The notes below the pieces were generated by a model that saw only the letters and a program-made list of their open reading frames with translations, was not told where the DNA came from and searched no databases. 64,000 nucleotides of DNA from a virus. This document shows, in pieces, positions 3,289-63,419 of this stretch. Location: positions 1 through 64,000 of IMG/VR virus record IMGVR_UViG_3300036985_001643. The stretch is one strand, 5' to 3'. How positions within the stretch are numbered: position 1 is the stretch's first letter; each line of letters starts with the position of its first letter. Position numbers and translations under genes: made by a program.

Positions 3289-3290
3289 CG

Positions 3291-3536: not shown

Positions 3537-3538
3537 GT

Positions 3539-15820: not shown

Positions 15821-15831
15821 TTTTAATTATT

Positions 15832-17082: not shown

Positions 17083-17100
17083 TCAATAACACAATAGGTA

Positions 17101-40524: not shown

Positions 40525-43500
40525 ATGGCAAAGAAAAAAATTGTTCCCCCACCACCAAGTCCTGTTAGGTTACAGGCTTTATCTTTAGATACTAAATCAG
40601 ATAAAACTTTAGGATATAATTCAGATATTATTGACGAAGTAGGTGCAGGAGAAGAGGCAGACAGTGGTGTTATGCAAAAACACTACGCTCAAAAAGATGC
40701 TAATTTTTTTGATCCTTATGAGGATTATGTAGATAGAAAAACTTTACATGGTGGGCAATTTGATATAGAAGAATTAAATACTATTAGAGCAACTAATCAA
40801 TCTAATTGGGAACAAGCAGGTCATGCTGTTGCTAGAGTTGCTACTAACATTGTACCTCAAATTATATCAGGGTTTGCTTCTATGGTAGATTTACCAGGTT
40901 ATATAGACGCTGAACATGCTGCTAGTAATAAGATTGTCAATTGGGCAATGGATTTAAAAAAGGAAGTTGATGAAGATTGGTTTCCTATTTACGAAGAAAA
41001 ACCTGGACAATCTATGAGTCTTTCCGATCCTGCTTGGTGGATGTCAAGAGGTTCAGGATTAGTAGAATCGGTAGGTTCTTTTCTTGCTCAAGGTTTTGGA
41101 GTAGGTAAAGTAGTTTCTTTAGGAGCAAAAGGAATAGGTAGTGTTTTACAAGGTAAGAAGTTATTCGCAGCTTTAGAGGCTATACCTGGAGTTACAAGTG
41201 GAGCAAACGTAGCTAAAAGAATAGGAGGAGCTACTCAAAGTTTAACTACAGCTGCAATGTTAAATCAATCTGAAGCTGTAATAGAAGCTACTCAAGTATT
41301 TAATGATACTTATAAAGCTAGACTAGACGAAGGTTGGGATTATGCTAAAGCTAAAAAAGCGGCTGCTGAAGCTGCTTCTACTACTATGAATCTTAACAGG
41401 ATTAATATCTTGTTAAACTTAAGTTCTGCTACAGCGTTCTTAAAAGGACAAAAGTATACTAGACAATTATTAAAAAACCCTACGTTAGGACATACTTCAA
41501 AAGAATTAGTAAAAGAAGGTTCTCAAGAAGCAGTTGAAGAGTTAATCAATCATGTTGCTTCTAAAGCAGGTATGGCTAAAGGAGCTGAGAAAAATTATAC
41601 TTTTGAAAATGCTTTAAACGATATCCATTCTATGGAAGGTTTAGAAGCTGCATTTTTAGGAGCTATTGGAGGTATTGCTCAAACAGGTGGTACTAAAGCT
41701 TTAGAATACAGTAAGTATGGACCAGGAAGTACTACAGACGAATCAGGTGTTAAGATAAGTAAAGTACAAGATGCTCGTAATAGATACCAACAACAACAAG
41801 AAGTTATTAACGAATTAAAGGATAAAGGTGTTAAAATCACAGATGCTTTAAATAGTGTTAAAGAACAACTTGTATTTGAAGAAAAATTAAATGCTGCTTA
41901 CGCAAGTGGTAACGTAGAAGAGGTTAAAACTTTACACGCTCAAATGTTTGAGAATGTAGCAGCTAAACATTTTTCTGCAGGTACTACTGAAGTATTAGAA
42001 AACTTATTAAAAGCAGAGTCTCAAAAAGATCCTGAAGAAGTAGGACAAGACTATATTGATAGAGCTAAACAAGCTGTTAAAGATTTAAGAACCTTAGAAA
42101 ACATCTATAACAATGCTGAAGAATACGCTAATGTAGATGAAGTATATAGAAATAGAGCTAGTAAATTAAGAGCAGAAAAAGTTGTTCCTGAGGCTACTAC
42201 GTTACAAAAAGAATCTGAGTTCCAACTTAATCAAGAAGTTGACGCTATTGCTAAAAAACACATGTTTGATAGAGAGCGTCAAGTATTAATTAAGAAAAAC
42301 GGAGTAGTAGTAGACACAGAAACTAAAACAGAGAAAGCTCCTATTACATATTCTCTTTCTGACTTAGAAAACAATACTGGAGACACTGATGCTAACAAGG
42401 CTGTATATGAGAAATTCTTAGCAGAAGTAAAAGCATTACCTTCTTATGAAAGTACTAATTTTTATACTGAACAATTAGATGCTTTACAAAAGCAAATAAG
42501 AGATTTAGATAAAGATTATAAAAATATTACTTCAGATGCTTATCAAAAAACAGCTAAAGCTAAAGCAGCTGAAAAAACTAAAGTAGAACAACTTACTAAA
42601 GATTTACCTAAAGTATCTACTATCTCTGAAGTAGAAAAAATGAAAGAATCTACTACAGATAAAGACTTTCACAAAGCTGCTGATGCTAAAATCGAAGAGA
42701 TCAAAAAGAGTAACGATGCTCAAGCTAAACAGAAGAAGACTCAAGCTACAGTTGCAGAGCTTAACACTAGAATAGAAAAAGCTACTGAAGAAGAATTAGA
42801 AGGGTTATTAGAAGAAATTAATAATGCAGAATTAAGTCAAACACATAAGACTAATCTACGTAACGCTTACGATAGAAGAGCAAGTATACTTAACGGTACA
42901 CCTGTAGCTGTATCTCCTGAAGAAGAAAACCCTTTAGGTGCTTTTGGTTTTACTAATAATAACCCTAACGATACAGCAGAGGAAATAAAAAGAGAAGAGG
43001 AATCTCGTGCTACTAATCTTCCTAAGGATTTACCTAATCCTAAAACAGAGACTAAAGATGTAGAACAACAAGTTGCTGATACAGCAACTAAGTTATTAGA
43101 AACAGATACTACTAGAGTTACAGGACAAGATACTCAAGGTAACTTAACTTATGCTTACGGTAAGTCTACAGAAGGTCACAACTCTGGAGCAGTATTAAGT
43201 AGAGAGTTTACACAAACAGAAAATGGAGGAATAGTAACAAGAGAGGAATCTACAGATGATATAGAAAATCTACAAGTGTTAGATCCTGAAGTATTACAAT
43301 CAGGTACTCCGTTAATAATGGAAGTAGATACTGATTACATAGGTCCTAAGTATGATCCTTCTTCTAGTACTAGAGAAACTACTTCTTGGGTAGATAGATT
43401 AGCAGTGTTAAAAGCTAAAGCTGAACAACAAGGTATTCCTTTAACACAGTTAAAGGAGTATATTGCTGAAGTACCTATTAAGGTAACTATGGAAGACGGT

Positions 43501-46500
43501 ACTACTGTATTCTACGTACACGATAATGCTTGGTTTAGAGAAGAAAACCTTGACAATACACCTGATGCTATTGCTCAAGATAAAGCTAACAACTTTAAAA
43601 TCAGAGAACAAATAATCAAAAAAGGTAAAGTTACTACTAAAGTATCTTATAAAAGTTTTGGTCATTTATTCAGAGCTTACGATGGCTCTAAGATTACTAC
43701 TTCTGAAGCAATGCCAGATAGTGACTTAGCGTTATCTGTTTGTAAGAATGAATCTTTAGATTTTACAAAAGGTAAACTATTACCAACTACTTTACAAGAA
43801 GGTAGAACTTATGCAATAGTACCTGTAGGACCAGATACTTACTTACCTGTTCCTTTAGAAAGAGCTCCTATTACTCAAGAGATAGTTGATTCTATTATGA
43901 TTGCTGTAGAGGCTCACCTTTCAGGTGACACTGAGAATCCTGTTGTACAGGCTATCGGTAACTCTAACTTAGGCTTAGACATTACTACTACTGAAGGTTT
44001 AAATAAATATGTTCAACAATTTATCTACTTGTATCCTACAGAGAAACAAGAAGGTATTGAGAATCTTTTAATTAACCAAGGTGGTTCTAAAAGTACTTTG
44101 TCTTCTAGTAGACCTATTATTGCAATAACAGCAACAGGTATCGAGTTTGGTAAACCTGGTGTACAAATGGGTTCTTTTACTAATCAAGATGGTGTTAAAG
44201 TACAATCTTTTGCTGTAGTTCTTTCTAAGAACTTTAAGAAAGATGCTAAGACTACAAAAGGTTTAGCAGCGTTAAGAGCTATCTTAGAAAGTGGTAATAT
44301 ACTTTCTCATACTCGTTTAGAAAACTTACAAAAGAATCTTGACAGTGTTATCTTATTAGATAACCAAGGAGCTACTAGAACTATTAAGTACTCTCAACAA
44401 GTAAAAGATTCTACAGTTACTAATCTACGTTCTATTAATATAGGTACAGAGGAAGCACCTAAGTATGTGTATACTATACAACCTACTATTAAGTTTGATG
44501 TAGCGTTTGCTAAATTAGATAAAGTTAAAAAAGCTAGTTCTACTACTAAGAAAAAAGTTACTGTTCCTAAAGTTACTGTAACTCCTGTTGCTACTAAAAC
44601 TACTATTCCTGTTACTACTACAGTTGCTGTATTACAACCAAATGATCTTCAACTTAATGTATCTGCTACTACTAAAAAAGCAGGTATGGATTCTATTACA
44701 AAGCAAGATTCTAGCATAGAGTCATTTGATGAAAATAAGTTTATCAGAGTAACAAAAGCTAATGCAGATGATGTTAATGGTAAATATTATGCTATTGATA
44801 ATGGAGTACTAAGAATAAGAATTAATGGAAAAGATGCTGTTTCAGGCAGAACAGGAGGAGCAACCCAAATAAGTGTTAAAGTCCCAGTAGGATTTAATGA
44901 AAAAGTCTTTGCGGAAAAACTTAAAAACATAAGTCATAAAGACGGTGTTACTACTGATAAAGCTGTACAACAAGTTGTTAATGATGTTAGAAAAGCAATC
45001 ATAGAAGCACAATCAACTTCCGCAACTACTTCTACTATAGAAGCTAAGAAAGCTGATATAGAAAGAAGAAGACAGACAGGAACTAATGTTAGAGGTACAA
45101 CTTATAAAGGAGAAACTACTGAAAAAGATGAATTAAAAGTTACTAAGTATTCTGAGTTTTTTCCTGATGGAAAAAGGATCTCTAAAGGAGGTAGAATAAT
45201 GTTACCTGCTGAATTTATAGAAGAGTACAATATAACTGATCAAGATTATTTAGATAGTCTTGAAGGAGCTACAGAAATAAGAATATATGAAGTAAGAGTA
45301 GGAAAAGATGGTAGATCAGGTATAAGCATACAAGGAACTTTTCCAGAAGGAAACATAGAAACGGATGTTGCTGGTACAGAACTAACTGCTTTAAGTGAAA
45401 CTCGAGATGACATAGAAGCTCAAAAAGCTGATGTAGAAAGAAGAACTACAAAAGTAATATCTTCAGAAATTGTAGAAAAAGGGAACAGAAAAGGTCAAAC
45501 AAGAACAGTAACTCAAACTAATTCTATAAAAGATGTAGAAGGTACAATAGTAAGTGTAACAGAATATGAAGCAAAAGTTGGAGATACTACTATCACACTG
45601 GGAGGTAAATCAATGACTGTTAAAGAGTTCAAAGAAGAATTTCCATTAGATGAGGATTATGAAGAAATATTTGCAAGTTGGCCAGATTTAAATGATGATA
45701 CAATAATTACAGTAAGAAAAGTAAAAAGAACGCCTACTAACTCAAGGTATAAAACTGTTGTGAATATTTTCAACCCTGTGTTAGGGGGTGAGATGGATAT
45801 AACTATTAAAAAAGATGATACTAAATATGATGCAGAACTAGCTGCTTTAAAGCAACCTGTTGCTGGTAAACAAGTTCAGATAGATGATATAGAAAGAAGA
45901 CAAAGAGTGGCTGATATAATTACATCTCAGTTTGAATTAGGTGTTGAACTTCCAAAAATTTTAGAAACATTAGCTGAACAAGGTTATGTAGAAAAGATTA
46001 ATAATAGTGCATTTTTTAAACAAAGTGTTGGTAGAGATGCTATAGTTTTTAATATTGATGGTGCAATAGTACCTATATATAGAAGCTCAGAAGGAACAAG
46101 TAGTAAAACAAAAGGTAAGTGGTATCCTTTTTTCTTTAATGCAGGAGACTGGTTAGTTAAAGGAATGGCTGATAGTTATAAAGATGGTTACAATAATCCT
46201 ATTATTAAACAAATATTAAATAGTTTAAATACTAATTATACCTATGACAAACCAATTGCAAAAGTAAATGGTAACAATAAAGAGGTATTAGTATTATTAG
46301 GTCTTGAAGGATTTGATGAAGAAAATAATGGTATCTATGATTACCAAAATTATCTTGCAGCATCTATAGTATTAAAAGATTGGCAAAGTAAATTAGGTAA
46401 TATTGATGTGTCAGGTTATCAAGAGTATCTTGATGGTGCATTATCTGGGTTAATAAAAGCTAATCCAACTTTAAAATCAGAAATAGAAAGTGCATTTAAA

Positions 46501-49500
46501 ACTGCATCAGATAGTTTTGCAGAACTAGCTGCTTTAGAACAAAGCACAAGTGTTGTAAAAACTCAAAAAACAGAATTAGAGAAAGTAGAACAGGTTAAAG
46601 ATGTAGTAATAAATGGAGAAAAATATTCATATTATCCATTAGCTGTAAGCCAATCTTCAGGAGCATCTGTGTTAATAGCAAACAAAAAATCTATTTTAAT
46701 ATCAGACGATTATGGAAATATTTCTGAGTTAGAAACAGCTGAAGAAAAGATTACAGAAAACGATATTACAGCAGGTAATATTTTTTACATGACTGTAGAA
46801 AAAGGAGTTCCTAGAATTGTTTCAATAGAAGAAAGTTTACCTGAATTAGGTAATGAAAATGGTTTAAGAACTTATTCAATGAGAATAACTTCTTATGACG
46901 CAGGAGGATCAAAAGAAATAGAGTCAGGAATTGGTGATTTAGGAAAAATAAAATCATTAGAAAGTAGTATTGGTAAAAGTGATCTTAGTAAAAAAGAATT
47001 AGCTTCAGAGTTAAATAAACTAGGAGTAAAGAAATTAAAAGTAAAGCAAGGACTTATTGTACCTACAATACCTTCAATTACAAATCAAGGAAACTTTGAA
47101 GAAGATAATACTATTGAGTTACCTAACGATTTAAAGATAGATGCTGCTATTACTTTTACATCTAGTAATGTTTTTCAAAAAACTTTTAAATCTATAACTA
47201 CAGCAATTGTAGCAAGTAAGTTGCAATTTACTAAACCTGGTAGATTTATAACTAAAGAAGGAACTTTAACTAAAGAAGGTGAAGAAATATTAAAAAAATT
47301 AACTTCTACTGCTTCTCCTAAAAATTTAAGAGAGTTAGATGCTTTAATTTCTAGCAACTTAGATAAACAACTTTGGGAAAACGAAAAAGAAAATAGTATA
47401 AACTCTATTGTTTTAGACGCTATTACTCAAAATAAAAAAGTAGCTAATTCGTTATTAAGTACAGGAAGGGTAAAATTTAATTCTGAATATAGTAATGCAT
47501 TTGTTGCTACTAGAGAAACTATTAGAGCTAAAAACAAAGAAAATATACAACAGTCCTTTAATAATATTCCAAGTTTAAAAGAATTAAATTCTCCTGCTTT
47601 AGAACAAACTACAGAGCAAGTTATTGCTAACTCTCCTATTCCTTCTGCTGAACAGCAAGTTGAAGAAGCTATTGATCCTGAAACAATCATAGAACAAGAG
47701 GCTATTCAAATGTTAGCTGATCATACAATTGAAGAAATTAATGGATTCTTAGACAATATTAATATAGGTTTAATCACTGAAGAAGATTTACAAGGACAAT
47801 CTTTAGAACAAGTTAAACAAGCAATTAACAGAGCTAAAGAAATACATAAAAAGAATAGTGAGAAGAAAACAACTTTCCAATTTCCTGGAAAAAAGAGTAT
47901 TACCGTTGATGGTAACACTAAAGATTCTACGGATATCTCAGAGGATACTTTTGATTATTTAATTAGTCCTCTAAACGAAGAACAAGTAGACGAGTTAAAC
48001 GCTGAGGTTGAAGCAATGATTATTAGAGGTGTAGACTCTGAGACACAACGTTCTTTAATTGCTTATATATCTGCAGAGATTATTCAAAAAACTCTTGCTG
48101 AGAAAGAAGTAGGTGGAGCGAGAACAGTGAAGGTTAAAGATATAATGGATACCAATAAAGAATACTTTATTGCCTTAGCAGAGTACTACAAGGAAAACGG
48201 TTTACCTAACAAAGCTAAAAGATTAGAAGCTGTTGTAGAACAGTTTGATAAAGTAGATAGGTTAGTACAACAATACATGAGTCTTCTTACTACAGGTACA
48301 GTAACTTCTAAACCAAAAACAGAAAGTGAAGAATCAGTAGGATTAGAGAAGACTTTATACACTGATGATTGGGCGTTTACTATCGATTCTAAATCTACAG
48401 CTTCTGGAGATTTAAAGAAATTCTTTGCTAATATACAAGCACAGGATAAAGACGGATTAAAACAAAACAGTCTAGGGTTAGAAGAGATAATGCCTTTTGA
48501 TGCAGTATACGATACTCTTCACGAGATATTAGCTAACAAACCTGCTGACTATACAACAATGATGGAGATTCTTAAGTTGTATGCAGAGAATTTCCCTTGG
48601 ATAAACTCTGTAGTAGAATCTATAGAAAAAGCTCCTGAACGTATTAAAAACGAATTTGTTTCAGATATGGCTAAACACCATATAGAGATGTCGTTTGTAA
48701 TGTGGGAAAGAAACAAAAACGGTACTTATAACCTACAACGTTGGTCAAGTAACTCTGCATCTAAAGAGAATAGATTAAGAGCGATGTGGCAATCTAACTT
48801 AAGAGGTGTAGGTACTTCTAGTAACATTGTAGTAGTTAATGACGAAGACGAATACGTATTTGACCACGTAGTTGTAGATAGATTAATAACTCAAGCAGAG
48901 AAGTTTGCTGAGGATCCTTCTGTGGTTACTAACGATGATATTGCTAATTGGTTAGGTCAATTAGGTATTGTACTTGCTGATGACACTTACGATGACTTAC
49001 GTAACGGTTTATTCAACAATAAAGGTAAGAAAACCTTTAACCAATTATTTACTCATTCTCAAGGGTTATTTAAAGTACTTACTGCTAAATTAAAAACTAT
49101 CAGTAATGGTAGACCTAAACCAGGAAAACCTAATACTAACTTAGTAGATAACGCTAATTTAATGACGGATAGTGTTGTTAAAGCATTGGCTAAATTAGAC
49201 GCTACTAATAGTCTTAATACTTCTTCTAACTCTTTCCAATCGGGTGGTAAAACTGTTTACTCTTACGGTAACAATAACTACTTAGTAAACCGTATGAGAG
49301 ACTTAACGGCTCACAATGGAGAAAAGTTTATTAACGAAGAACTTATTAAGCATTTACAAGATACTTCTTTTACTAAAGATAGTTTATGGTTAAAAGATAT
49401 TACTTCTACAGATGCTTTAGGAGAAGCTGCTAGAAGAGAGTTAGGGTTAAACTACTTATCGTTAGAAGCGTTAAAGAAAAAGTTTACACCTTCTCAAGAT

Positions 49501-51450: not shown

Positions 51451-51923
51451 TGGAAAAATTACTTACTGACGTAGAGCAAAAAGAATTAAATAAGTTTGGT
51501 AAATTAGAGTTAACAGCTTCACAAGCTTACTTACACCTTACTAATAGAATGAAGACATTGGGTTACTTTGGTGCAGAGAAGTTCTTTGCAGGTGAATCTA
51601 ACGATGAAAGAGAGCACTATGCTAAACATGAAGACTTTATGAACAAGTTTAATTGTGAATTAAGTGTTGAAGCATTGAGCCCTATTGCTTCTGATGTTAG
51701 TAACATTAAAGAAGCTTTAGAAATGGCTTACCAAATGGAGGTAGACTTATTAAACGAGTACGAAAAGTCTTGTAAACTTCCAGAGTTATCAATAAAAGTT
51801 GTACTTTTGTTACAAGAGTTTGTTGAAATACAAAGTGGTGCAGTTGGAGAATACGGAGATCTATTAGCTAGATTAACTCTAACAGACAACATGTTATTAT
51901 TCGATCAAGAACTAGGAAACTAA
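51450..51923 (+). CDS. ferritin-like protein
   Basis: 157 aa with EL.AS..Y, G...FF..ES.DE..H, AL..A...E and F...Q motifs of the ferritin four-helix bundle. It has a TAATG overlap with the upstream gene. Confidence 0.85.
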   Translation: MEKLLTDVEQKELNKFGKLELTASQAYLHLTNRMKTLGYFGAEKFFAGESNDEREHYAKHEDFMNKFNCELSVEALSPIASDVSNIKEALEMAYQMEVDLLNEYEKSCKLPELSIKVVLLLQEFVEIQSGAVGEYGDLLARLTLTDNMLLFDQELGN

Positions 51924-51933
51924 AAGTACAATT

Positions 51934-54900
51934 ATGGCTTGTCAATATTTTGTAAACGGAGAATGGATCTCTGAGGAACAGTTTAAAGAAGTTTTAAACA
52001 ATGGTTTATTAGATAATTTAGTAGCCAACGGTACTGTTAAAGAAGAAGGATTTCCCGTAGATAATACTAAACTCCTTAAAACTGAGACAGTTACTACTAC
52101 TAAAACAACTGTACCTGTAGAAAAACTAGCAGCAATCTTAGCAAAAGAAGTGAGTACTCGTTCAGGGTATCCATTAAACATGTTAAGTGCTCTAGAGTTG
52201 AAAGAAGACAAGTCAGACTTTAAAATTCCTTTATGGGCTTCTCCTTACGCAAGTAAGTTTGAGTCTTTATTAACTTCTTTAGTAAGTAATAAAGTAGTTA
52301 AACAAAAGTTTGCTGGTACATCAAGTGTATTAGGTTCGGAAGAAGGGTTTAGAATTAAACAAGGTGACGAAGCAGCAGGTAGTTTAAAGGACTCCTCTAT
52401 TGTATTTTCAGACAACTTTGATCCTGAGAAAGGTTTACAACCGATGAGGGTAGATCCTAAAACAGGTAAAATATTACCTGCTCAAATAATGTTACCTTTT
52501 AAGTTTAGAGACGAGTCAGGTAACATATTGTTTATCAACGATTTCCTTAAATTAGATTCTTCAGGAAGACCTTTAAGAACTCCAGACGGAAGAGTAACTA
52601 TTGACGATAGTAAATTACCTGCTAAATTAAGACAGTTATTTGGTTTCCGTATTCCTACACAGGAGCGTAACTCTATGGCTGCTGTAGAAATAGTAGGGTT
52701 TTTACCTGAAGCAATGGGAGATTTAGTACTAGCTCCTAGAGATTTTACTAAACAGATGGGTTCGGATTTTGACGTTGATAAGTTGTACAGTTACTTGTAT
52801 AACCACTTCTATAAAGACGGTAAATTATACACTAATTTCCCAAGTGATAAGAAGACTATTAAAAAACTAACAGATGCTGCTAAAGAACATTTAGCTACAT
52901 TGAAAAGTTCTTTAAAACTAAATAGTGCAGAACAAGCATTGTTAAATGCTTACATTGATAACAAGTTAGAAAAAAACGATGATAACGATCAAGACGAGTT
53001 GCTTACTAAAGCTACTACTCTTATCGCTAGACTTACTAATTCTCCAATAATGGAGGAGATAGAAAACGTTACTAACGATTTATCTATTTACAACAGAGCT
53101 TACAAAGCTTCTCGTCAAAATAAAATATTAGACATTCACTTATCAGTGATGTTGAGTAATAACCCTGAGGTTATTAAATCTATTATTGCATTAGATTCCT
53201 TTGGAGATTTTGAGCAATTAGCTCAAGACTTATATAAAGTAAGAAGTGAGCGAGGTTTAATTCCTCCTATTACCACTATTCTTTCAGATACTTATCAAAG
53301 AACTAAATACATTAACGCTACAGCAGGTAAAACTGGGGTAGGTTCTTTCTCTTTAGATTCTACTTTTAATGCATCTGCTCAAGGTAAAGAGTTGACCATC
53401 ATCAATATGGACGATGAGACTCAAACAAATGTATTTGGTACCCCTATAGAACCTAAGAATCCTACTGCTGCTGAAGTATTAGAAGCTAATATGACTGTTG
53501 CTGCTTTTGGAACTAACGTTTCTAAAGGAGATTTATCAGACAAATATACACTACGTTCTAGAAACTTAATCAACAAAGCTAAAGAAGAAGGTAGAGAACT
53601 TACAGAGGAAGAAAAAGATTCTTTAAAGATGAAGTCTACTATTATTAGATCTTTACAATCTACAGCTGTGGATAATGAAAAAGCTCAAATATTAGATAAA
53701 CTTAACATCAACGATCAAACTATGGATGCTGTTAGAGCCCTTACTATATTAGGGTTTGAAGAGAAAGAAATAGTAGGATTGATAACACAAGAGATTATTT
53801 GGGAGTTTACTGCAGCATTAAAGGATAACGGTTCTTCACTGACTCCTTTCCAAGCTAACGCTGCAGAAACTTTATTTATTGATTTAGTAAAGAAATACGA
53901 TCCTGAAGGTAAACTAGCAGAATTAAAACCTTACGAATTAGAAGCTTTACAAAGTGCTACTAGTGAGTCATTAATGAGTGACATCAATACTCAAACGTTA
54001 CAAGAGTTAAGCGTAGGACCAACACCAGATGCTAATCTTAGACAGTTAGCTGCTTTAGCTAAATTCCTTAAACTTACTCAAATAGGTAAAGATATTAAGA
54101 CCTTACAGTCTACTATAAATACTGATTCTAAAGGTGTTCCTAAATCTTTAGTAGAAACAGATGCTAAAGTAAAACAAATAGAAAGGTTAGCTGCTTCTAA
54201 CATCTTTAATGCTACTAAGTTGTTAGGAGAATATGAAGGATCTAAATTAGTTACACCTACTACTCTAAATGGTTTTGCTTCTAAATACGGTACTATGTTT
54301 GCAGATACTATCTACAAACAATATTTCCCTTATCATACTACAGGTTTTAAAGTATTAGTAGATGAGTTACTACAATATATACCTAAAGGTAAAAATGCTT
54401 CGTTAACTAAACAAGCAGAGTTACAATTAGAGTTAATGGACGCTGTTAAGTCTTTCCTTTATGGTAATGCTAATACAAACTTGTTTACAGAAAACCCTGA
54501 TAGTGAACGTGCTAGATTGTTTATAGACACTAAAACTAACAAAAGTTTAGCTACTATACTACAGTCAGTTTCTGAAGAAAAGTGGTATACTTCTAATGGT
54601 TTCCTTAATAAGTTATCGTTAGACCAACAAAAGAATGGTCAAGTTTCTAGAGTAAACTTCGAATCTGCTTCAGGAGAAAACTTAGACGAAAGAGATATCT
54701 ATGACGGGTTTAACTACTTGTTATCTAAGAATTTCCCTATTGGTACTTTTAACGGTATCGATTATACTTCTCGTATGTTGGCTCAAGATTTAGTAGCTTC
54801 AGCGTTCTTAGAAGGAGGTCAACAAGGTTCTAAACAATACTTGAAGTATGTACCTACTGCTTACCTTAAAACTATAGGTTTTGGAGATTACTTATCAAAT

Positions 54901-57900
54901 ACTTCTTTTAATTACCTTGATACTTTCTTAGGTAATTTAAGCCCTGAAGGACAGTTAATGTATAACAATCCTTCTAGTTTTATGAGACAATACTTCCAAA
55001 ATAATGCTGATAAAGCTAAAAAGGTATCGTTGTCTGACTTACAAGGTAAAATATCAGCTGTTCCTGAAGGATACTTTACACTAAACGAAGAAGCTCTAAA
55101 GGACAATATAGTAGAGATTACGGATCCTTACACAGGTGAACCAACTACTACACAGACTAAGTTCTTATCTATCTATGATAGTAAAGTACCAGGTAAGTAT
55201 GCATTATTCGAGTTTGACGCTGTAGATAGATTGTACCGTAGAATACCTACTTTACAAGGTTCTTTCGGTTTTGTATCGTATAACTCACAAGTTGGTACAC
55301 CGTTACCTATTGAAAAAGCTAACAGAACTGTTAAACAAGAAGGTAACCAAGAAATACCAGGTTATACTTTACCTCATACACCTACTACTCCTACAAAGTC
55401 TTTTGATGTAAACGTGGTTAACAATACTGTTAAACCAGTAACTGCTAATACTTTACCTATTTCAAAAACATTGTCTGGTACTAAAGAAGCACTAGACGAT
55501 TTAATTAATAATATACAATTTGAAGACGGAGTATCTAGTTTAAACAGACAGTTGTTAAGTTCTTTAAGAGATTTACAATTACCTGATAACTTTAAAGTAG
55601 TGTATGATGATACTTTAAGTAGTAGAGGAGGTTATAGTTATGACAAACAAATATTGTTTATTAACTTAAAACATGAAGCTAATCAAAATATTGACGGTTT
55701 AGCTACCGCTGTTGCTCACGAATTAATACATGCTTTAACAAGTGAGGCTATTTATGAATACCAAAAAGGTGATTTAAGTAAGTTAACAGCTGACCAAATT
55801 AAAGCTATTGAGTCTTTAAAAGCTTTACAAGATAAGTATATTGATCATTTAAAAACTAAAGGTGAAGCAGGTGCTTTACAAGCATTTAAAGATAAATATG
55901 AAGCTTGGGTAGCACGAGGTAAAACAGGAAAAGTAGGAGTTTCTGCAGAAGATATTTCTAAGTTTTATGCAGGTATTAAACTATCAGAGTTTGTTACTAT
56001 GACTCTTAGTGATCCAGGTTTTCAACAACATCTAGCTTCTGTTATCGATGAGTCAGGAAAATCTCTTTGGGAACAAATTAAAGAAGTTTTAGGAGAATTG
56101 TTAAATACTTTAGGTTTAGATATTAAACCAGGTTCTGCTTTAGCATCTGCTGTAAAAAGCTCTATGGATTTAATTACTGCTAACCAACAAGCAATGGGTA
56201 CTAAATTATTTGTTACTAAAATTGATCAATTTAACTACTCTTACGATGCTGTTAATAACGTTGTTATCCACAATGCTAAAACAGGTGATAAAGTAGAAAC
56301 TAACGATACACAAATTAATAAGGTATTAGTACAATATGCATTAGCTAATAATAAGGAACAACGTGTGTTTAATGGTTCTACTTATGTTGCTATTGCTGAT
56401 AGAATATTAAACATTAAAAACGCTAACGAAGTAAGTCTAGAAACTTGGGAGTCTGCTAAATCTACTAAGCCATCTACTAGTATTAAACCTACAATAGATA
56501 CATCAAGAGAATGGAAAGGTGATTTAGAATCAAGACCTGTCTATACTTCTGAAGGAGTTAATACTATGAGAACTACTTCTGCTAAAGCTGATGAACATTT
56601 TGGTAATCCGTTTAGTGAAGCAGGCTATGGTAATACTATAAAAGTAGCTAGCATAGGTGCGGCTGTCAGAATGTATAAGGATTGGTTATTAAACAATGCT
56701 GTAACTGAATCAGAAATTGTAAAAGGAAATGTTAGTGACTTAGCTAAATTTGATAACCAAAGAGCTTGGATACTTAATCAAATTAATCAAGGTAAACTTG
56801 ATGGAGCTACATTGCTTTATGCTGGTAAATCTGAAGCAAGAGGTCAAGGTATGCACCCTACAGCATTAGCTGAAGTAGTAGAACAATTAAGAAGTAAATC
56901 AACTCAACCATCTACTCAACAACAAACTCCAGTAAGTGAAGTTAAAGAAGGTGTGCAAGAAATATTTGAATCTAATCCTGAATTAGCTAATATAGGTACA
57001 CCTGAACAATACTCTCAATATCTTGATACTATATTTCCTGATAGTAAAGTAAAAGATATTCTTTATCATGGTACAGCTTCTCCTAACACTATTGAGAAAT
57101 TACAACCTCAAAATGATAGAATATACTTTAGTGATAATCTTACAGCTGCAAGATATGCTAGTTGGGATCAAGATAATAGAGTACAATTTGAACCAGGTTC
57201 TCAAACAAAGTTACAAGTAATACCTGCTATTATAAATTTAACAAATCCTGTAAAATTATCAGACGTTAACTTTAAAGAAACAGAGACTAATAAAGAAGGA
57301 GACGGTATTATTGGTACTAATATAGAAGATCCATTAGGAGGTAGAGAAAATCAAATAGTAGTAAGAAATGCTGATCAAGTTTATGAATTAGGTACTAAAC
57401 AAGATTTAGAAGGATTTAAAAAGTTTATTGCTAAAGATACTAAATACGAACTATTCCCAGGTGTATATGCTAATCAAGGTCAAACAGAAGCTTTAGATAA
57501 GTTAACAGATTTCTTAAGCTCTGATAAACAAGCATTCTTACTACAAGGAAAAGGTGGTACAGGTAAAACTACTATTATTAAAAAGATTGTTAAAGAAGCT
57601 CAAGCTCAAGGTAACAGTGTATTAGCAATTGCTCCTACTCATAAAGCTAAAAAAGTATTAGCTAAATCATTAAACGATCCAGGTATTAAGTCTACTACTT
57701 TAGCAGCTGCTTTAGCTATTAAACTTGATGAAACTACAGGTAAATTTACACCTGATGAGTTTGCTAGAAAAATGGATAAAGTTCCTATTACAAAAACATC
57801 TTTAGTAATTATTGATGAGTCTTCTATGATTTCTGATAAACTATTAGAAGAGATTAAAGAGTTACTACCTAAAGGTACTAAGATTATTTTTATGGGAGAT

Positions 57901-59031
57901 AAGGCACAGTTACCTCCTGTAGGTCAAGAGAAAGACAGTGCTGTATTTGATGTTAAAAATAACTATACATTAACAGAGAAAATGCGTCAAGCTGCTACTT
58001 CTCCTATTATTAATATAGGAACTAAAGTAGCACAAAACGTAGAAACTACTGGACAAAGAGTTGCTAATCCTATTACAAAAGAAGATAGAGTAAATGCATT
58101 TGATGAAGTAAGTGGTTCTTCTATAATTTGGGAGGACAGTGAAAACAAAGCTTTGGATACCTTTGTAGAAGATATAAAAAATGCTAATGGTAATGTTGAT
58201 TTTGCAAAAGTTATTACTTTTAATAATCAAAACCACAATAGTCCTCAATCTGTAAAAAGTTTAAATACTAAGATTAGATTAAAATTATACGGAGAACAAG
58301 CAAATCAACAACAATTTATACCAGGTGAGATATTAACAGCGTACGATACTTTTGGAGGTGAAGATATTTTATTTTACAATAGTGAAGATCTTATAGTAAA
58401 AGAAGCTACTGAGCCAGCAAGAAAAACAATTTCTGTAAATGTTACTTCAAGACAACAAGGTAATCGTTCTAAAAGTTTTGAGTTTAATATAATAAATCTT
58501 ACTCTTAAAAACGAAGAAGGTAAAGATATAACAGTTCCTATTATTGCTGAATCAAGTAAGGAAGAGTATCAAAGAACGTTAAGTCAATTGTTTAAAACAG
58601 ATAAACAAATGGGTTATGCTTTAAGTAGTAAATTTGGTAATTTAGAGTATGGATACGCTATCACTTCTCATAAAGCCCAAGGATCTACGTATACTAATGT
58701 TTACGTGATGGAAGACAATATTATGGGTAGTTCTAACGGAGGTTCTATGAAGGCTAAAAGTCAATCATTATACGTAGCTGTTTCTAGACCTACTACTAAG
58801 TTGGTAATGGTTAGTCAAAAAAACAACCAAAATATCACAGAGGGTACTTTTAGTATGAGTAACTTAGGAGATATCGATTTAGGTAATTATACAGATAAAG
58901 ATAATGCTTATAACAACGATGATTACGAAGCTTATTCTAGAGAAATGTATAACAATGACCAAGATCAATTGTTAGCAGAATCTCCAATAAGTAGAGATAG
59001 ATTAGAAAATTATTTGTTACTTTGTAAATAA
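51934..59031 (+). CDS. virion RNA polymerase catalytic (beta'-like) half fused to zincin metalloprotease, DUF4326-like, ART-like and SF1B (RecD/Dda-like) helicase domains
   Basis: RNAP: RIPTQ at 52648, GSDFDVDK (DxDxD at 52765-52779) and AVDNEK. Zincin: HELIH at 55717 with a downstream EF. DUF4326-like: FGNPF at ~56600. ART-like: YHGT...IYFS at 57064. Helicase: GKGGTGKT at 57547, APTHKA, IIDESSM, GDKAQLPPV, MRQ, YAITSHKAQGST and LYVAVSRP. Confidence 0.9.
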   Translation: MACQYFVNGEWISEEQFKEVLNNGLLDNLVANGTVKEEGFPVDNTKLLKTETVTTTKTTVPVEKLAAILAKEVSTRSGYPLNMLSALELKEDKSDFKIPLWASPYASKFESLLTSLVSNKVVKQKFAGTSSVLGSEEGFRIKQGDEAAGSLKDSSIVFSDNFDPEKGLQPMRVDPKTGKILPAQIMLPFKFRDESGNILFINDFLKLDSSGRPLRTPDGRVTIDDSKLPAKLRQLFGFRIPTQERNSMAAVEIVGFLPEAMGDLVLAPRDFTKQMGSDFDVDKLYSYLYNHFYKDGKLYTNFPSDKKTIKKLTDAAKEHLATLKSSLKLNSAEQALLNAYIDNKLEKNDDNDQDELLTKATTLIARLTNSPIMEEIENVTNDLSIYNRAYKASRQNKILDIHLSVMLSNNPEVIKSIIALDSFGDFEQLAQDLYKVRSERGLIPPITTILSDTYQRTKYINATAGKTGVGSFSLDSTFNASAQGKELTIINMDDETQTNVFGTPIEPKNPTAAEVLEANMTVAAFGTNVSKGDLSDKYTLRSRNLINKAKEEGRELTEEEKDSLKMKSTIIRSLQSTAVDNEKAQILDKLNINDQTMDAVRALTILGFEEKEIVGLITQEIIWEFTAALKDNGSSLTPFQANAAETLFIDLVKKYDPEGKLAELKPYELEALQSATSESLMSDINTQTLQELSVGPTPDANLRQLAALAKFLKLTQIGKDIKTLQSTINTDSKGVPKSLVETDAKVKQIERLAASNIFNATKLLGEYEGSKLVTPTTLNGFASKYGTMFADTIYKQYFPYHTTGFKVLVDELLQYIPKGKNASLTKQAELQLELMDAVKSFLYGNANTNLFTENPDSERARLFIDTKTNKSLATILQSVSEEKWYTSNGFLNKLSLDQQKNGQVSRVNFESASGENLDERDIYDGFNYLLSKNFPIGTFNGIDYTSRMLAQDLVASAFLEGGQQGSKQYLKYVPTAYLKTIGFGDYLSNTSFNYLDTFLGNLSPEGQLMYNNPSSFMRQYFQNNADKAKKVSLSDLQGKISAVPEGYFTLNEEALKDNIVEITDPYTGEPTTTQTKFLSIYDSKVPGKYALFEFDAVDRLYRRIPTLQGSFGFVSYNSQVGTPLPIEKANRTVKQEGNQEIPGYTLPHTPTTPTKSFDVNVVNNTVKPVTANTLPISKTLSGTKEALDDLINNIQFEDGVSSLNRQLLSSLRDLQLPDNFKVVYDDTLSSRGGYSYDKQILFINLKHEANQNIDGLATAVAHELIHALTSEAIYEYQKGDLSKLTADQIKAIESLKALQDKYIDHLKTKGEAGALQAFKDKYEAWVARGKTGKVGVSAEDISKFYAGIKLSEFVTMTLSDPGFQQHLASVIDESGKSLWEQIKEVLGELLNTLGLDIKPGSALASAVKSSMDLITANQQAMGTKLFVTKIDQFNYSYDAVNNVVIHNAKTGDKVETNDTQINKVLVQYALANNKEQRVFNGSTYVAIADRILNIKNANEVSLETWESAKSTKPSTSIKPTIDTSREWKGDLESRPVYTSEGVNTMRTTSAKADEHFGNPFSEAGYGNTIKVASIGAAVRMYKDWLLNNAVTESEIVKGNVSDLAKFDNQRAWILNQINQGKLDGATLLYAGKSEARGQGMHPTALAEVVEQLRSKSTQPSTQQQTPVSEVKEGVQEIFESNPELANIGTPEQYSQYLDTIFPDSKVKDILYHGTASPNTIEKLQPQNDRIYFSDNLTAARYASWDQDNRVQFEPGSQTKLQVIPAIINLTNPVKLSDVNFKETETNKEGDGIIGTNIEDPLGGRENQIVVRNADQVYELGTKQDLEGFKKFIAKDTKYELFPGVYANQGQTEALDKLTDFLSSDKQAFLLQGKGGTGKTTIIKKIVKEAQAQGNSVLAIAPTHKAKKVLAKSLNDPGIKSTTLAAALAIKLDETTGKFTPDEFARKMDKVPITKTSLVIIDESSMISDKLLEEIKELLPKGTKIIFMGDKAQLPPVGQEKDSAVFDVKNNYTLTEKMRQAATSPIINIGTKVAQNVETTGQRVANPITKEDRVNAFDEVSGSSIIWEDSENKALDTFVEDIKNANGNVDFAKVITFNNQNHNSPQSVKSLNTKIRLKLYGEQANQQQFIPGEILTAYDTFGGEDILFYNSEDLIVKEATEPARKTISVNVTSRQQGNRSKSFEFNIINLTLKNEEGKDITVPIIAESSKEEYQRTLSQLFKTDKQMGYALSSKFGNLEYGYAITSHKAQGSTYTNVYVMEDNIMGSSNGGSMKAKSQSLYVAVSRPTTKLVMVSQKNNQNITEGTFSMSNLGDIDLGNYTDKDNAYNNDDYEAYSREMYNNDQDQLLAESPISRDRLENYLLLCK

Positions 59032-59041
59032 AGAAGACAGT

Positions 59042-62000
59042 ATGAGTGCAGCAACATGTATCAATAAAAATACCCCAGAGTATAAAGCATTGCTAAGTCA
59101 AGTAGGAAGCGAAAGACTAGCAGTGTTAGCTATATTAAACAATGGTTACGAAGTACCAGATGTACGACCTATTACAGAGATTAAGAATGCTATCAAGTTT
59201 AAATCTGAGGTAGAAAACTTTGCAGGTATTGCTGCTAACTTAAGAAGATATAATACTAAAAATAATACTTCCCACTACTTTACTTTTACTAAAGCTTTTG
59301 GTAATACGTTTAAACTAGAGTTGAAGTATAACTACTTACCTGTTGACTTAGAAAGACAACGTCAGCGTAAAGCTAGACAAGGTGATCCTATGTATATGGT
59401 GGTAGGGTTTAATCAACAAGGTTTTAACCAAGTGTATCCTAACAATAATAGACAAAGTAACCTTTTTGAAGGAGCTATTACAGGTAAAGAAACACCTACT
59501 ACATCTACTTCTACTATAGAGGAAGAAAGAGATTTAGGTTTTTACAATGGTGATGCTGCATTACTAGAACAAGAATCTAGAGACATGGATTTCTTAATAG
59601 AAGGTTCAGGAAAGAAAGTAGTTGACTTAGAAAAACGTAGAGAAAGAAAGATTAATGACGAGATTATTAAGCAACGTCAGTTACTAAAAAATGTAACAGA
59701 TGCTGATTCTCTACGTTCGATTATTAATAAGATTGAGGGACTAAGAAAACAATTAGACCAAGCTGAAGGAAGAGTAGTTGTAGCACAAAACATTAATGCG
59801 TTTGAGGACGTATTACAATTTGGTAATTCTCAAGTTAATGAGATACAAAAATTACTTAGCAATCCTGCAGTTAGTTACGAAGATGTTTATTATGCTCAAA
59901 AAGTATTAAACCTTTGGTTAAAAGCAGGTGACTTCTCAACACCAAGTGAGGAACATATTTTCCTAGACGAATACGAGTTTAATACTCCAGAAATACGTAG
60001 TGCTTTTAGAGAGATAGCTTCTAAAGCATCGGACTTACAAAGTCACTTAACAACACTTAAAACTAACTATGTATCTAACTTTGTTAGACAGTACACAGAT
60101 GGTAAATTAAGTAAAGAAGAAATCTTTAAGCATTTAAAACAAGTTGGTAAAATAGGTACTACTACCTTAAACTTATCTCGTCACGATGACGCAATGTTAC
60201 AAGCTATCTTCTCTGCGGTAGAACAAGCAAATATGAATGCTAAGTTAGAAGCAGGAGAAGTATGGGAAAAACTAGATGTATTATCTAAAGCTTTCTTAAA
60301 GAAATCAGGAGGTAATTTTGATATACTTAAACAAGTAGACGAGAACGGTTTAGAAACAGGTAGAGCAGTATCTAGATTTGCTACTAGTTTCTACGAGACT
60401 AGAAACCAATTGATGAAGAATGCTTTCTGGTCCAGAGACGCTGTTACGGGTAAGTTAAAAAAAAATGATGCCGGTGTAAAAGCTTATTATGATTGGATTA
60501 ATAAGAATACAGCATCTTTTGATCCTAGAATATTGCTCCCTGATAGTAACCTAGAAGACGGAGTTATTCCTGAAAGTGCACTATATAAGAGAGTTAAGTT
60601 TGACGAAGGTTCTAGACAAAAACATATTGCCGAATTAAAGTCTCACTTAGGAGAAAAAGGTTACGAGTACTACATTAAAAGAGTAGAAGCTAAGATAGAG
60701 AAGTTTAAGATTCGTAGAGAAGTAGCTTATTCTTCTATTCAATTAGAAGAAGGACTATCTCAACAAGAGAAAGACAGTTTGTTTGATACTTGGCAAAAAG
60801 AACATTCTCCTTATTGGGGTATGGATATGGCAGAAAACCCTGTTAGTAGAAGAAAAGGTAAAGATTCTTTCTATTCTCCTAAAGGTATTAGAGAATACGT
60901 AGAACAAGTTCCTAAGAAAACTGTAGACGGTGTTACTACTAAGTGGTACGATCAAAACTTTGCTAAGATAGAAGCTGACGAAGATTTATTAGCTTACCAT
61001 TCTTTCATGATGGAAACGTTAAATACCTTACGCTATACTCTTCCTCAACAGAAACAAGCATTATTAGGAGTAGGTGTATTACCTACTATCCAAAAAAGCT
61101 TAATGGATATCTTTCAGGAAAAAGGAGTAATGATGGGTATAGTTCCTTTTTGGGACAAAATGAAACAGTTGCAAACTACTACAGATTTTGCTACTACTGT
61201 ACACTCTGACGTTGATTCTTTTACAGGTGATATTGAAAAAAATATTCAACTACAATTTATCGAAGATACTAGTGCTAAAGTTCGAGAAATAGTAAAAGAA
61301 AAAACTATAGCTCATAAACAAGCAACTGGGAAACCAGCTACTACAGCAGAGATAAACCAATTTACTGCTGAAGCTAGAGACTTCTTATCAAAAAATAAGT
61401 CTTGGGATATCACTAAGATCTTAAAAGCATACTCTTTAACAGTATTGGCCCACAAACACAAATCTTTTATAGAACCTCAAATACGTCTTGCTGAACAAGC
61501 GTTTAAGAGTCGTAAACAATTGGTTACCAATAAAGCAGGTGAAGTACAGAAGGATGTTCAAGGTAACGTATTAGTACAAGAAGGTAACGATAACCTTAAA
61601 TCTGCATTAGAGTTTTTCCTAGATTCTGAATATTGGGGTGTAGGAGGACGTAAAGTAGAAGGTGTTACTAAAACTAAGTTATACACTAAAGAAGAAACTG
61701 CCCACAAGAAAGAGTTAGAAGCTTTACTTGCTGAAGCTACTACAGATGAGGATAAACAATTCCTACAAGATCGTATTGATTCTCTAGGAGGTTTCCGTAC
61801 TATGAGTGGTGTAGGAGATGCAGCTTTAAAGTATATGACACTTAAAGGTTTAGGGTGGAACTTTTTCTCAGCATTTTCTAATATTGGTTTTGGTGCTATT
61901 TCTAATATTATCCAAGCTTCGGACGGTAGAGAATACTCAGCTAAACACTTAAGAGACGCTTATTTACTTGTTACTAATTCTATAGGTAGAAACGCTTCCT

Positions 62001-63181
62001 TCAATACTTGGGAAGGTGTTAACGGTAATGCTTTAAAAATTAGAAAATTAATGGACAAGTGGGATTTATTACAGACATCCAACAAAGAGATGTTTGATAC
62101 ATCTAACAAGTCATCAATGAGTAAGTTAAACAGGTTTGGTCCTTTTACCTTACAAGAACGTTCAGAGTACTTAAATATTGCTCCTGTAATGGTAGCAATA
62201 ATGATGGAGTTCCCTGCTACTAACCCTGATGGTAAAGCTACTACAATGTGGGAAGCTTACGACATGTCTACTGGATCTTTAAAAGAAGGATACACTACTA
62301 CTACCGATGAGGTAAAGATGTTCCAAAAGATTAAACGTGTAGTAGAAATGAATCATGGTGATTACAATAATGCACTACAAGTTAAAGCTACTATAGGTGG
62401 TAGAGCTCTTTCACAATTTCGTACTTGGATGTTTGAAGGTTTTGCTAACAGATTTGAAGCAGAAAAAGTAGATTACGCATTATCTTACGGATTAGACGAA
62501 GCTTATGTACGTAAAGGTAGATACAAAAGTTATACTAAAGGGCAACTTAATGTAACAGGTGCTGCAATAGGTACTATGATTCTTCCAGGTATCGGAACAG
62601 CTGTAGGTGCAGGTGCAGGTTATCTGGCGGGTAAATTTTTTGGCATGCAGACTGAAGAGTCAGCAATGGGGGATACTTTGTACACTCTTAAACATTTAGC
62701 TCGTAAGTTAATGTTTAGTAAGAGTAGAAGTACAGATTTTAACGAAAAGTTTTCTAAAGTAGATGCAGCCAACATGCGTAAAAACATGACCGAATTATAC
62801 ATAATTTTAGGTCTTATGGGGCTTGCTTTAATGTTAAAAGCTTTAGCCGGAGGAGACGATGAAGAAGAAGATGCATCATTCGCTACTAACTTCTTATTAA
62901 ACCAAACTATTCGTCTACGTACAGATATTGGGTTCTATACTAACCCTTTAGAGTTTGAGAAACTTACTAAAACAGCTGTACCAATGGCTCAATTAGTATC
63001 TGATGTTACTCAAGTTATGAGTGACATAGGAACACACTTAAACGATAAAAAAGATGACGAAGTATTTAATTCAGGATCTTTTAAAGGTGTCCCAAAATGG
63101 TTAATACATACAGGACAATTACTTCCTGGACCTGCTCAAGGTATACGTTTGTATAAAACAGGTGACAAAGTAATAGATTAA
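59042..63181 (+). CDS. giant ejected cargo protein with C-terminal membrane segments
   Basis: M...C.NKN.PEYK N-terminus, HG.Y and GR...QFR.W motifs, a glycine zipper GAAIG...PGIGTAVGAGAG, and TM segment LYIILGLMGLALML. It is the last gene of the crAss RNAP block. Confidence 0.7.
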   Translation: MSAATCINKNTPEYKALLSQVGSERLAVLAILNNGYEVPDVRPITEIKNAIKFKSEVENFAGIAANLRRYNTKNNTSHYFTFTKAFGNTFKLELKYNYLPVDLERQRQRKARQGDPMYMVVGFNQQGFNQVYPNNNRQSNLFEGAITGKETPTTSTSTIEEERDLGFYNGDAALLEQESRDMDFLIEGSGKKVVDLEKRRERKINDEIIKQRQLLKNVTDADSLRSIINKIEGLRKQLDQAEGRVVVAQNINAFEDVLQFGNSQVNEIQKLLSNPAVSYEDVYYAQKVLNLWLKAGDFSTPSEEHIFLDEYEFNTPEIRSAFREIASKASDLQSHLTTLKTNYVSNFVRQYTDGKLSKEEIFKHLKQVGKIGTTTLNLSRHDDAMLQAIFSAVEQANMNAKLEAGEVWEKLDVLSKAFLKKSGGNFDILKQVDENGLETGRAVSRFATSFYETRNQLMKNAFWSRDAVTGKLKKNDAGVKAYYDWINKNTASFDPRILLPDSNLEDGVIPESALYKRVKFDEGSRQKHIAELKSHLGEKGYEYYIKRVEAKIEKFKIRREVAYSSIQLEEGLSQQEKDSLFDTWQKEHSPYWGMDMAENPVSRRKGKDSFYSPKGIREYVEQVPKKTVDGVTTKWYDQNFAKIEADEDLLAYHSFMMETLNTLRYTLPQQKQALLGVGVLPTIQKSLMDIFQEKGVMMGIVPFWDKMKQLQTTTDFATTVHSDVDSFTGDIEKNIQLQFIEDTSAKVREIVKEKTIAHKQATGKPATTAEINQFTAEARDFLSKNKSWDITKILKAYSLTVLAHKHKSFIEPQIRLAEQAFKSRKQLVTNKAGEVQKDVQGNVLVQEGNDNLKSALEFFLDSEYWGVGGRKVEGVTKTKLYTKEETAHKKELEALLAEATTDEDKQFLQDRIDSLGGFRTMSGVGDAALKYMTLKGLGWNFFSAFSNIGFGAISNIIQASDGREYSAKHLRDAYLLVTNSIGRNASFNTWEGVNGNALKIRKLMDKWDLLQTSNKEMFDTSNKSSMSKLNRFGPFTLQERSEYLNIAPVMVAIMMEFPATNPDGKATTMWEAYDMSTGSLKEGYTTTTDEVKMFQKIKRVVEMNHGDYNNALQVKATIGGRALSQFRTWMFEGFANRFEAEKVDYALSYGLDEAYVRKGRYKSYTKGQLNVTGAAIGTMILPGIGTAVGAGAGYLAGKFFGMQTEESAMGDTLYTLKHLARKLMFSKSRSTDFNEKFSKVDAANMRKNMTELYIILGLMGLALMLKALAGGDDEEEDASFATNFLLNQTIRLRTDIGFYTNPLEFEKLTKTAVPMAQLVSDVTQVMSDIGTHLNDKKDDEVFNSGSFKGVPKWLIHTGQLLPGPAQGIRLYKTGDKVID

Positions 63182-63190
63182 TATCAATAT

Positions 63191-63241
63191 ACCCCCTCGG
63201 CTTCCCGTTAGAACAGCTCGCTTAGAGGGGGTTTTCTTTTT
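63191..63241 (+). terminator. terminator at the convergence of the late block and the minus-strand genes
   Basis: ACCCCCTC / GAGGGGGT stem with a 26-nt loop, followed by TTTTCTTTTT. Confidence 0.7.
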
Positions 63242-63419
63242 AATTTAGTAAGTCTTCACAAGCATTTACAAAATGATAGTACTCGTTACTAGGACTTTCT
63301 CCACATTCTATTTCGTCCAACATCAATTGGAAAAAATCTTCTACATCATCCTTTGTATGAGGATGTTTGACTATAAAGTCTTTCTTGAAGTTAATAGCTT
63401 CTGTTAATACTTCTTTCAT
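63240..63419 (-). CDS. small acidic hypothetical protein
   Basis: ORF track 63240..63437. The ATG at 63419 (MKEVLTEA) is preferred because it abuts the upstream mini-ORF. Confidence 0.6.
   Translation of the reverse strand: MKEVLTEAINFKKDFIVKHPHTKDDVEDFFQLMLDEIECGESPSNEYYHFVNACEDLLN

Follow-up and report, generated by a model that had tools for sequence, protein, structure and literature searches.

Facing terminal cysteines at the gene breaks of the ejected RNA-polymerase block in crAss-like phages suggest a covalently joined cargo chain

Crassviruses carry about 5 MDa of cargo, including an RNA polymerase (RNAP), and how this cargo is stored, ordered and ejected is an open question; a 2026 paper on phage N4 states that the ejection proteins of crassviruses still have to be resolved in their structures and relations (PMC13434306). 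We examined one locus, the first 64,000 nucleotides (nt) of IMG/VR virus record IMGVR_UViG_3300036985_001643, hereafter the window; the source record comprises 79,279 bases, with an estimated completeness of 62%. The window is the structural arm of a crAss-like phage, with portal, major capsid, ring, muzzle and cargo-1 genes in the usual order (BLASTP against crAss001, in which the open reading frames, ORFs, of the window matched gp20, gp32, gp34/35, gp43, gp44 and gp45). Downstream of these genes lie those of three giant proteins, A, B and C (Table 1), which, judged by sequence comparison, constitute the virion-packed, ejected RNAP block of the phage. A sequence-only reading of the window had proposed that the three proteins are linked end to end through cysteines (Cys) near their termini.

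In the translations, A, B and C contain 5 Cys in 7385 residues, 4 of which are at the ends that face a junction. The count, the residue positions and the codons of the sequence-only reading (51442, 51940, 59023 and 59057) were reproduced exactly. B has no Cys besides Cys3 and Cys2364, and C has none besides Cys6. The only internal Cys, residue 1073 of A, has no counterpart in the A orthologue of L001, which carries the terminal Cys only (L-numbers denote loci of crAss-like relatives; L099 is crAssphage cr116_1 and L102 is crAss002). Cys accounts for 0.07% of A, B and C, compared with 0.90% of the remaining window ORFs. Under uniform placement, the chance that at least 4 of 5 Cys fall no more than 6 residues from the four facing ends is 5.6e-10, a post hoc figure that weighs less than the comparative data given below. 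As had been read, the two upstream cargo proteins of 1474 and 930 amino acids (aa) contain no Cys, the external muzzle-like protein is rich in Cys (8 in 1432 aa), and the summed mass of the three proteins, 822.7 kDa, agrees with the proposed chain of about 820 kDa. The three genes had also been called consecutive, which was incorrect, because a ferritin-like ORF of 157 aa (51450-51923) intervenes between A and B. This gene was found in all six relatives split at the A-B junction, with 62-67% identity. It is absent where the polymerase is uncut, and its start overlaps the stop codon of A.

For the comparison with relatives, we used 13 loci found with the end of A as the query and 80 more found with a profile of the catalytic region, at 27-71% identity; prototype crAssphage, Crevaviridae, Suoliviridae and the epsilon and zeta groups were left outside this survey. 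An adjacent pair was scored by a Cys in the last 15 residues of one protein (tail) and a Cys in the first 10 residues of the next (head). All 13 close loci showed the facing pattern, which was found in 82 non-redundant chains of IMG/VR relatives. From 205 non-redundant adjacent pairs, 100 had both Cys, 82 had neither, and 23 had one only (Fisher p 3e-32), so that the anticipated co-occurrence of a C-terminal Cys in one gene with an N-terminal Cys in the next was borne out. Most of the discordant pairs are explained; 17 pairs had the head Cys only, and nine of these belong to gut phages with the first gene on the other strand. In the same 82 chains, Cys was present at 1 of 55 outer C-termini and at 11 of 70 outer N-termini, at least 9 of the 11 being of the gut type with the partner gene on the other strand. 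Internal Cys amounted to 0.032% in the chains versus 0.90% in the background. The tail Cys was located at positions -1 to -4 in 87 of 103 junctions, and the head Cys at positions 3-5 in 99 of 103. Additionally, the two-protein systems, 61 chains, had exactly one tail Cys and one head Cys. The 150 best RNAP-bearing representatives from a library of 1.84 billion proteins contained 261 Cys in 584,932 residues, and 63% of these Cys fell in terminal windows covering 0.64% of the residues; a Cys was present at the end of 142 of the 150 proteins.

The rule was also followed in named phages. In phi14:2, the last residue is the sole Cys of gp67, Cys3 and Cys2179 are the only ones of gp66, and Cys3 is the only one of gp65. 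FpV4 gp32/gp33, crAss001 gp47/gp50/gp49, DAC15, cr106_1 and cr126_1 conform to the rule, as does crAss002 (Intestiviridae) gp32/gp33 if an internal Met is taken as the gp33 start. The annotated gp33 start (15243-15340 of the crAss002 locus) is probably 32 codons too early, and the internal Met gives a Cys3 head; a terminator-like hairpin is located in the 170-nt gap 3' of gp32. The relatives recovered by a scan seeded with crAss002 were all close (78-98% identity) and contributed little further. The rule also holds in crAss001 and DAC15, where the first gene lies on the opposite strand and converges with the other two. Therefore, the rule belongs to the proteins and not to gene adjacency. L059 (1142-20204) contains a run of five genes that are only partly connected by Cys pairs. 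One pair is shared by the 1646- and 2422-aa proteins and another by the 1118-aa protein and the 308-aa protein, which has Cys3 as well as Cys-3; a terminal Cys is missing from the 2422-aa protein and from the 594-aa protein that follows it.

The Cys pairs track the places at which the block is broken into genes. In other lineages, the block is one giant Cys-free protein or is cut elsewhere. Ten giants of 2312-5542 aa had no Cys in 42,825 residues, and thus the joint disappearance of both Cys in fused orthologues, which had been put forward as a check, was observed. We distinguished at least four junction classes at non-homologous places, mapped on the A+B+C coordinates of the window. The first, at about 2220-2470, is the phi14:2 gp67-gp66 type, and this cut falls inside the uninterrupted A of the window, which has no Cys there. 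The second, at 3641, is the A-B junction and was found only in the window's own clade. The third, at 6006, is the B-C junction and is widespread. The fourth lies before the helicase module in L005 and L007. A comparison of these two loci with L006 as a recent split/fused pair was discarded, because L006 stops short of the junction and offers no test. At the place of the phi14:2-type junction, the window (44600-47620, A about 1359-2365) has approximately 800-900 extra residues; the upstream partners of that type map to about 1434-1592 of A, and the downstream partners to about 2330-2470.

No Cys pair was seen at interruptions that leave the protein undivided. In cr116_1 (23611-24453), a group I intron with a 215-aa ORF is inserted inside the RNAP DFD motif; it matched Rfam RF00028 with E 8e-7 and 4e-6, both halves being below the gathering score. 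The cr116_1 record annotates the RNAP exons as separate proteins. In L074 (9751-10148), a giant gene that is uninterrupted in L072 (94% identical) is broken by a lone in-frame stop, for which a sequencing error, a nonsense mutation and recoding are possible explanations.

By sequence comparison, A and B are two halves of one RNA polymerase. The 4401-position profile phrog_16227, which represents the crAss giant virion protein, matches the end of A with its positions 2749-2993 and continues into the start of B with 3003-4005. Residues 3299-3546 of A align to phi14:2 gp66, a solved virion RNAP, at about 955-1167, and profile A1 of the B catalytic region matched residues 1321-1399 of chain A of PDB 6VR4 with E 1.6e-14. 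The 6VR4 entry is phi14:2 gp66 itself and was reached only by profile A1, as phmmer searches of PDB with B and with the end of A as single sequences returned helicases only. Since the end of A aligns to gp66, and B has both the DFDVD motif and the 6VR4 match, the A-B cut passes through the polymerase itself, at a position estimated by alignment at about residue 1150-1170 of the single-chain gp66. The phi14:2 block (gp67-gp66-gp65) and the crAss001 block (gp47-gp50-gp49) are homologous to that of the window and have the same terminal Cys signature. However, their RNAP is a single chain, whereas that of the window is cut and has the ferritin-like gene inserted. RNAP-block proteins have been seen in virions by mass spectrometry only for phi14:2 and crAss001. 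A split intein was considered and rejected, because no intein/Hint family was found in A or B (Pfam) and the Cys occupy the very ends of the chains instead of an extein-intein boundary.

The sequences around the facing Cys form short terminal modules (T1 and T2 for tails, H1 and H2 for heads; Table 1). The fused orthologues of L020, L021 and L024 run directly from A minus 86 to B plus 55, skipping both segments, and hence the A tail and the B head are extra sequence of split forms only. The T1, H1 and H2 profiles had no significant match in nine fused giants, and these giants align to C only from about residue 184-237 on. The heads sort into recognizable types. The H1 type was found on 13 library representatives. 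At the first junction class, the RNAP-bearing proteins of L066, L069 and L071 have heads of the H2 type (first-round E 4e-8, 3.5e-6 and 1.7e-8). In profile searches of a 98-sequence set, the T1 type appeared at the L071 B-C junction (first-round E 1e-4), and the H1 type at the B-C junctions of L066 and L071 (E about 1e-3). The window's A-B types thus stand at the B-C junction of another lineage, and H2 at its first junction, which means that module types have been swapped between junctions. In 21 two-junction loci (one second pair, in L089, being spurious), the two heads of a locus had no significant similarity; both heads could be typed in 9 of the 21, and the types differed in 9 of 9. This is what cognate, orthogonal connectors would look like, as judged from one pair type and from small-database E-values. 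The B-C tail profile was too short to detect relatives.

We submitted the A tail (80 aa, with a 9-row alignment) and the B head (60 aa) to complex prediction, supplying our own alignments. The score was 0.39, compared with 0.02 for the best control, which is weak support; the runs agreed in at least 78% of contacts, and the partner predicted local distance difference test (pLDDT) value was at least 64. The mark of the method was reached by 58 of 80 solved complexes and by 2 of 110 mismatched pairs, and scores of 0.60 or lower were obtained by only 7 of those 80 complexes and by both passing mismatches; as our own alignments were used, these benchmark counts hold only roughly. The claim of short terminal docking modules stood for their existence, which is restricted to split forms, and the docking of the A tail on the B head is weakly supported by prediction.

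These data suggest the following mechanism. Wherever the block is cut, a short tail module closes the upstream piece and has a single Cys among its final residues, and a short head module opens the downstream piece and has a single Cys at position 3-6. The tail would dock non-covalently on its cognate head in the reducing cytoplasm, and both thiols would oxidize to an inter-protein disulfide after the particle has left the cell. A, B and C would then be one nearly unbranched 823-kDa chain, which would keep the pieces equimolar, adjacent and in order through storage and ejection; in the window, the A-B link would join the two polymerase halves. That the Cys lie so near the chain ends, only a few residues away, is consistent with a link that has to avoid branching. 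We consider it fairly probable that tails dock on heads and that their thiols oxidize in the free particle, joining A, B and C into a near-linear 823-kDa chain. The disulfide nature of the link, its timing, the ordered threading through the tail and the reduction in the host are parts of this mechanism that we infer. The sequence-only reading had the chain released by reduction in the host, and this part needs a restriction at the A-B link: both halves are needed for one enzyme, so their separation is unlikely to be the purpose of host reduction. A wider version appears rather unlikely as a whole and is put forward tentatively. In it, portable and mutually orthogonal tail/head docking cassettes, each clasped by a Cys-Cys pair, would let giant proteins be cut anywhere, even in the middle of a polymerase and by gene insertion (the ferritin-like gene here), and be re-joined after translation into a linear pseudo-polypeptide that is threaded in order and unclasped by the reducing cytoplasm of the host.

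The sequence-only reading knew of no description of such a link. One exists: the cryo-electron microscopy (cryo-EM) structure of the pre-ejectosome of cyanopodophage A4 (Anabaena phage A-4L; PNAS 2025) contains a disulfide between gp27 Cys1715 and gp26 Cys5, which stabilizes the insertion of the gp27 C-terminal helix into gp26 (PMC12002296). In the A-4L record, Cys1715 is the only Cys of gp27 (1717 aa) and Cys5 the only Cys of gp26 (1114 aa); together with the cryo-EM bond, these single-Cys sequences show that, in one unrelated podophage, this signature corresponds to a true disulfide. A4 and the window are alike in that the Cys of the upstream protein is in the last few residues and that of the downstream protein within the first approximately 6. 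B is otherwise free of Cys, as the A4 proteins are, whereas A has one extra, non-conserved internal Cys. No similarity was detected between A4 gp27 or gp26 and A, B, C or the two cargo proteins (BLASTP E >0.2), and the relation to A4 is one of analogy, not membership. A4 also differs in being a member of Saffermanviridae with one link only and no RNA polymerase, and its authors neither derived a rule for relatives nor described a connection with gene fission or exchangeable modules (PMC12002296). Thus, the tail-to-head disulfide between ejection proteins is already known from A4, and what is new here is a multi-link, module-borne rule that tracks gene fission.

Within the crassviruses, the cargo cysteines are mentioned in none of the papers that we searched, those on phi14:2 and crAss001 included. 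The crAss001 tail contains inter-subunit disulfides (hub-hub, hub-ring, R1-R2 and the gp57 dimer), so crassvirus particles do use intermolecular disulfides, like the proposed link (PMC10172136). However, those bonds join Cys-rich external proteins, not internal ejected cargo end to end. Another comparison is with the docking domains of polyketide synthases and nonribosomal peptide synthetases, in which short C- and N-terminal modules on consecutive giant subunits set partner and order, with several different pairs per system; these pairs are non-covalent and cytoplasmic. The modules of the window resemble them in being discrete and terminal, and dispensable in fused crAss forms. Unlike them, they each carry a facing Cys and belong to virion cargo.

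Other explanations of the facing Cys have to be weighed against the disulfide chain. The Cys could be a by-product of chance, of composition or of a nucleotide-level signal for translational coupling at gene boundaries, for which the many junctions with overlapping or close stop and start codons would speak. Chance is opposed by the very low probability calculated for the window, and translational coupling is ruled out by the partners on opposite strands in crAss001 and DAC15. Moreover, the rule persists where about 480-1500 nt separate the partner genes, is not seen where other genes abut closely (the 82 pairs with neither Cys), and does not extend to intron-type or nonsense interruptions. 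A by-product is extremely improbable, and an artefact is effectively excluded. The modules might also dock while their Cys pair differently, that is, Cys3 with Cys2364 of B combined with an A-C link, in homodimers, or with the portal or cargo protein 1 as partner. The sequence alone cannot give the pairing, and several copies of each protein per virion have been estimated for crAss001. However, the two-protein systems have exactly one Cys on each side of their junction, the window cargo proteins 1 and 2 have none, the tail and head types of the A-B junction recur together at the B-C junction of another lineage, and the lack of Cys at outer ends and in fully fused proteins is not predicted by homodimers or a third partner. 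We regard these pairings as very unlikely.

A shared metal ion, in a zinc-clasp-like or iron site, would avoid the difficulty of when oxidation could take place in the cytoplasm or the anoxic gut, as it could form in the reducing cytoplasm before packaging. The tail Cys is often followed by an acidic residue or a free carboxylate, the A-B break houses the ferritin-like gene in all split relatives, and other consecutive structural genes of the window have multi-Cys termini, all of which would suit a metal site. Nevertheless, each partner provides a single Cys with no conserved His or second Cys nearby, two thiolates alone are no usual zinc site unless two chains pair, and the sole solved case with the same signature is a disulfide; a metal site is therefore judged unlikely. 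We give a similarly low probability to free thiols that are never covalently joined and serve redox sensing, transient chaperoning of assembly or a cleavage signal. This explanation gains from the lack of direct evidence of a bond and from the C-terminal Cys ring of the P22 tailspike, which is reported to act in folding (PMC3357383). It leaves unexplained the strict pairing across the break, the joint loss on fusion and the extreme depletion of other Cys.

Several points weigh against the disulfide chain itself. No experiment shows a disulfide or other covalent link between crassvirus cargo proteins. Bayfield et al. analyzed reduced and non-reduced crAss001 virions by mass spectrometry and reported nothing on cargo links, and phi14:2 gp66 purified with dithiothreitol was active alone. 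The gut is anoxic, and oxidation there is uncertain. L025 (6407-20653) and L063 (293-20745) break the rule: each has a head Cys at position 3 or 4, and the preceding giant has no terminal Cys, its nearest Cys being 130 residues from the end in L025 and 398 in L063, with a further gene intervening. The 10- and 15-residue windows were chosen after data inspection, ORF starts were taken as the first ATG, and the association statistics are uncorrected for shared ancestry. The docking prediction was weak and returned no contacts, and, because B-C-type tails are too short for profiles, the covariation of tails and heads rests on one pair type only. A search of the phage record for an Erv1/ALR sulfhydryl oxidase gave no match, which is uninformative, as the control was silent too and the record is 62% complete.

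The coordinates of the features are summarized in Table 1. Directly after C, a G+C-rich inverted repeat followed by a T run was seen by eye (63190-63242), which would end the cargo operon. Farther upstream in the window (15215-18117), three consecutive small structural genes have terminal Cys: a 201-aa protein ends in a four-Cys cluster, a 416-aa protein has only Cys2 and Cys5, and a 338-aa protein begins with Cys4 and Cys6. The crAss001 tail hub gp38 ends in a comparable Cys cluster, and the hub is disulfide-bonded; no sequence homology of gp38 to these window genes was detected. A PHROG search of the small genes with Cys-rich ends gave no matches. Comparable Cys-rich ends were observed after the cargo block in L038 (17325-20611) and L061 (15408-16196).

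Table 1. Features of the cargo region in the window (positions in the 64,000-nt stretch).
Feature	Position	Strand	Observation
Muzzle protein, 1432 aa	28953-33251		8 Cys
Cargo protein 1 (crAss001 gp45-like), 1474 aa	33254..37678	+	BLASTP to crAss001 gp45, E 2e-17; 0 Cys; outside the chain
Second cargo-position protein, 930 aa	37694..40486	+	0 Cys; boundary to A without Cys on both sides; no match in PHROG search
Protein A, 3641 aa, first link	40525..51450	+	C-terminal part contains the first half of the virion RNAP
Cys1073 of A	43741..43743	+	Sole internal Cys of A, B and C; not conserved in relatives
Tail module T1 of A, last ~86 aa after Thr-rich linker	51190..51447	+	Alignment A2; missing in fused orthologues
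Cys3640 of A, penultimate; tail Cys of A-B	51442..51444	+	Invariant column in alignment A2
Ferritin-like gene, 157 aa, Cys69 and Cys108	51450..51923	+	Pfam PF00210, E 2e-10; between A and B
Protein B, 2365 aa, middle link	51934..59031	+	Second RNAP half, catalytic DFDVD, accessory domains, superfamily 1 (SF1) helicase
Head module H1 of B, first ~55 aa, then Thr-rich linker	51934..52098	+	Alignment A3; missing in fused orthologues
Cys3 of B; head Cys of A-B	51940..51942	+	Invariant in alignment A3
DFDVD catalytic motif of RNAP, B residues 278-282	52765..52779	+	Invariant D211/D213/D215 columns in alignment A1
Dda/RecD2-like SF1 helicase domain, B residues 1847-2295	57472..58818	+	phrog_325, E 2e-80; Pfam AAA_30, AAA_19, UvrD_C_2; PDB helicases
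Tail T2 of B, last ~25 aa, helix-like, ends Cys-Lys	58954..59028	+	Conserved in L001, L002 and L017
Cys2364 of B, penultimate; tail Cys of B-C	59023..59025	+	Translation
Protein C, 1379 aa, last link	59042..63181	+	No C-terminal Cys; terminator-like hairpin after it
Head module H2 of C, first ~45 aa	59042..59176	+	Profile matches at another junction class
Cys6 of C; head Cys of B-C	59057..59059	+	Translation

A simple sequence rule across the sampled crAss-like relatives provides a concrete and cheap test on cultured phages. If the proposed chain is real, it would account for the equivalence of the split and fused versions of the block and for the arrival of both polymerase halves in the same cell together. 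It would also supply a rule by which cargo chains can be annotated, and true start codons assigned, in thousands of crAss genomes from metagenomes, and it may yield small, orthogonal, redox-sensitive protein connectors.

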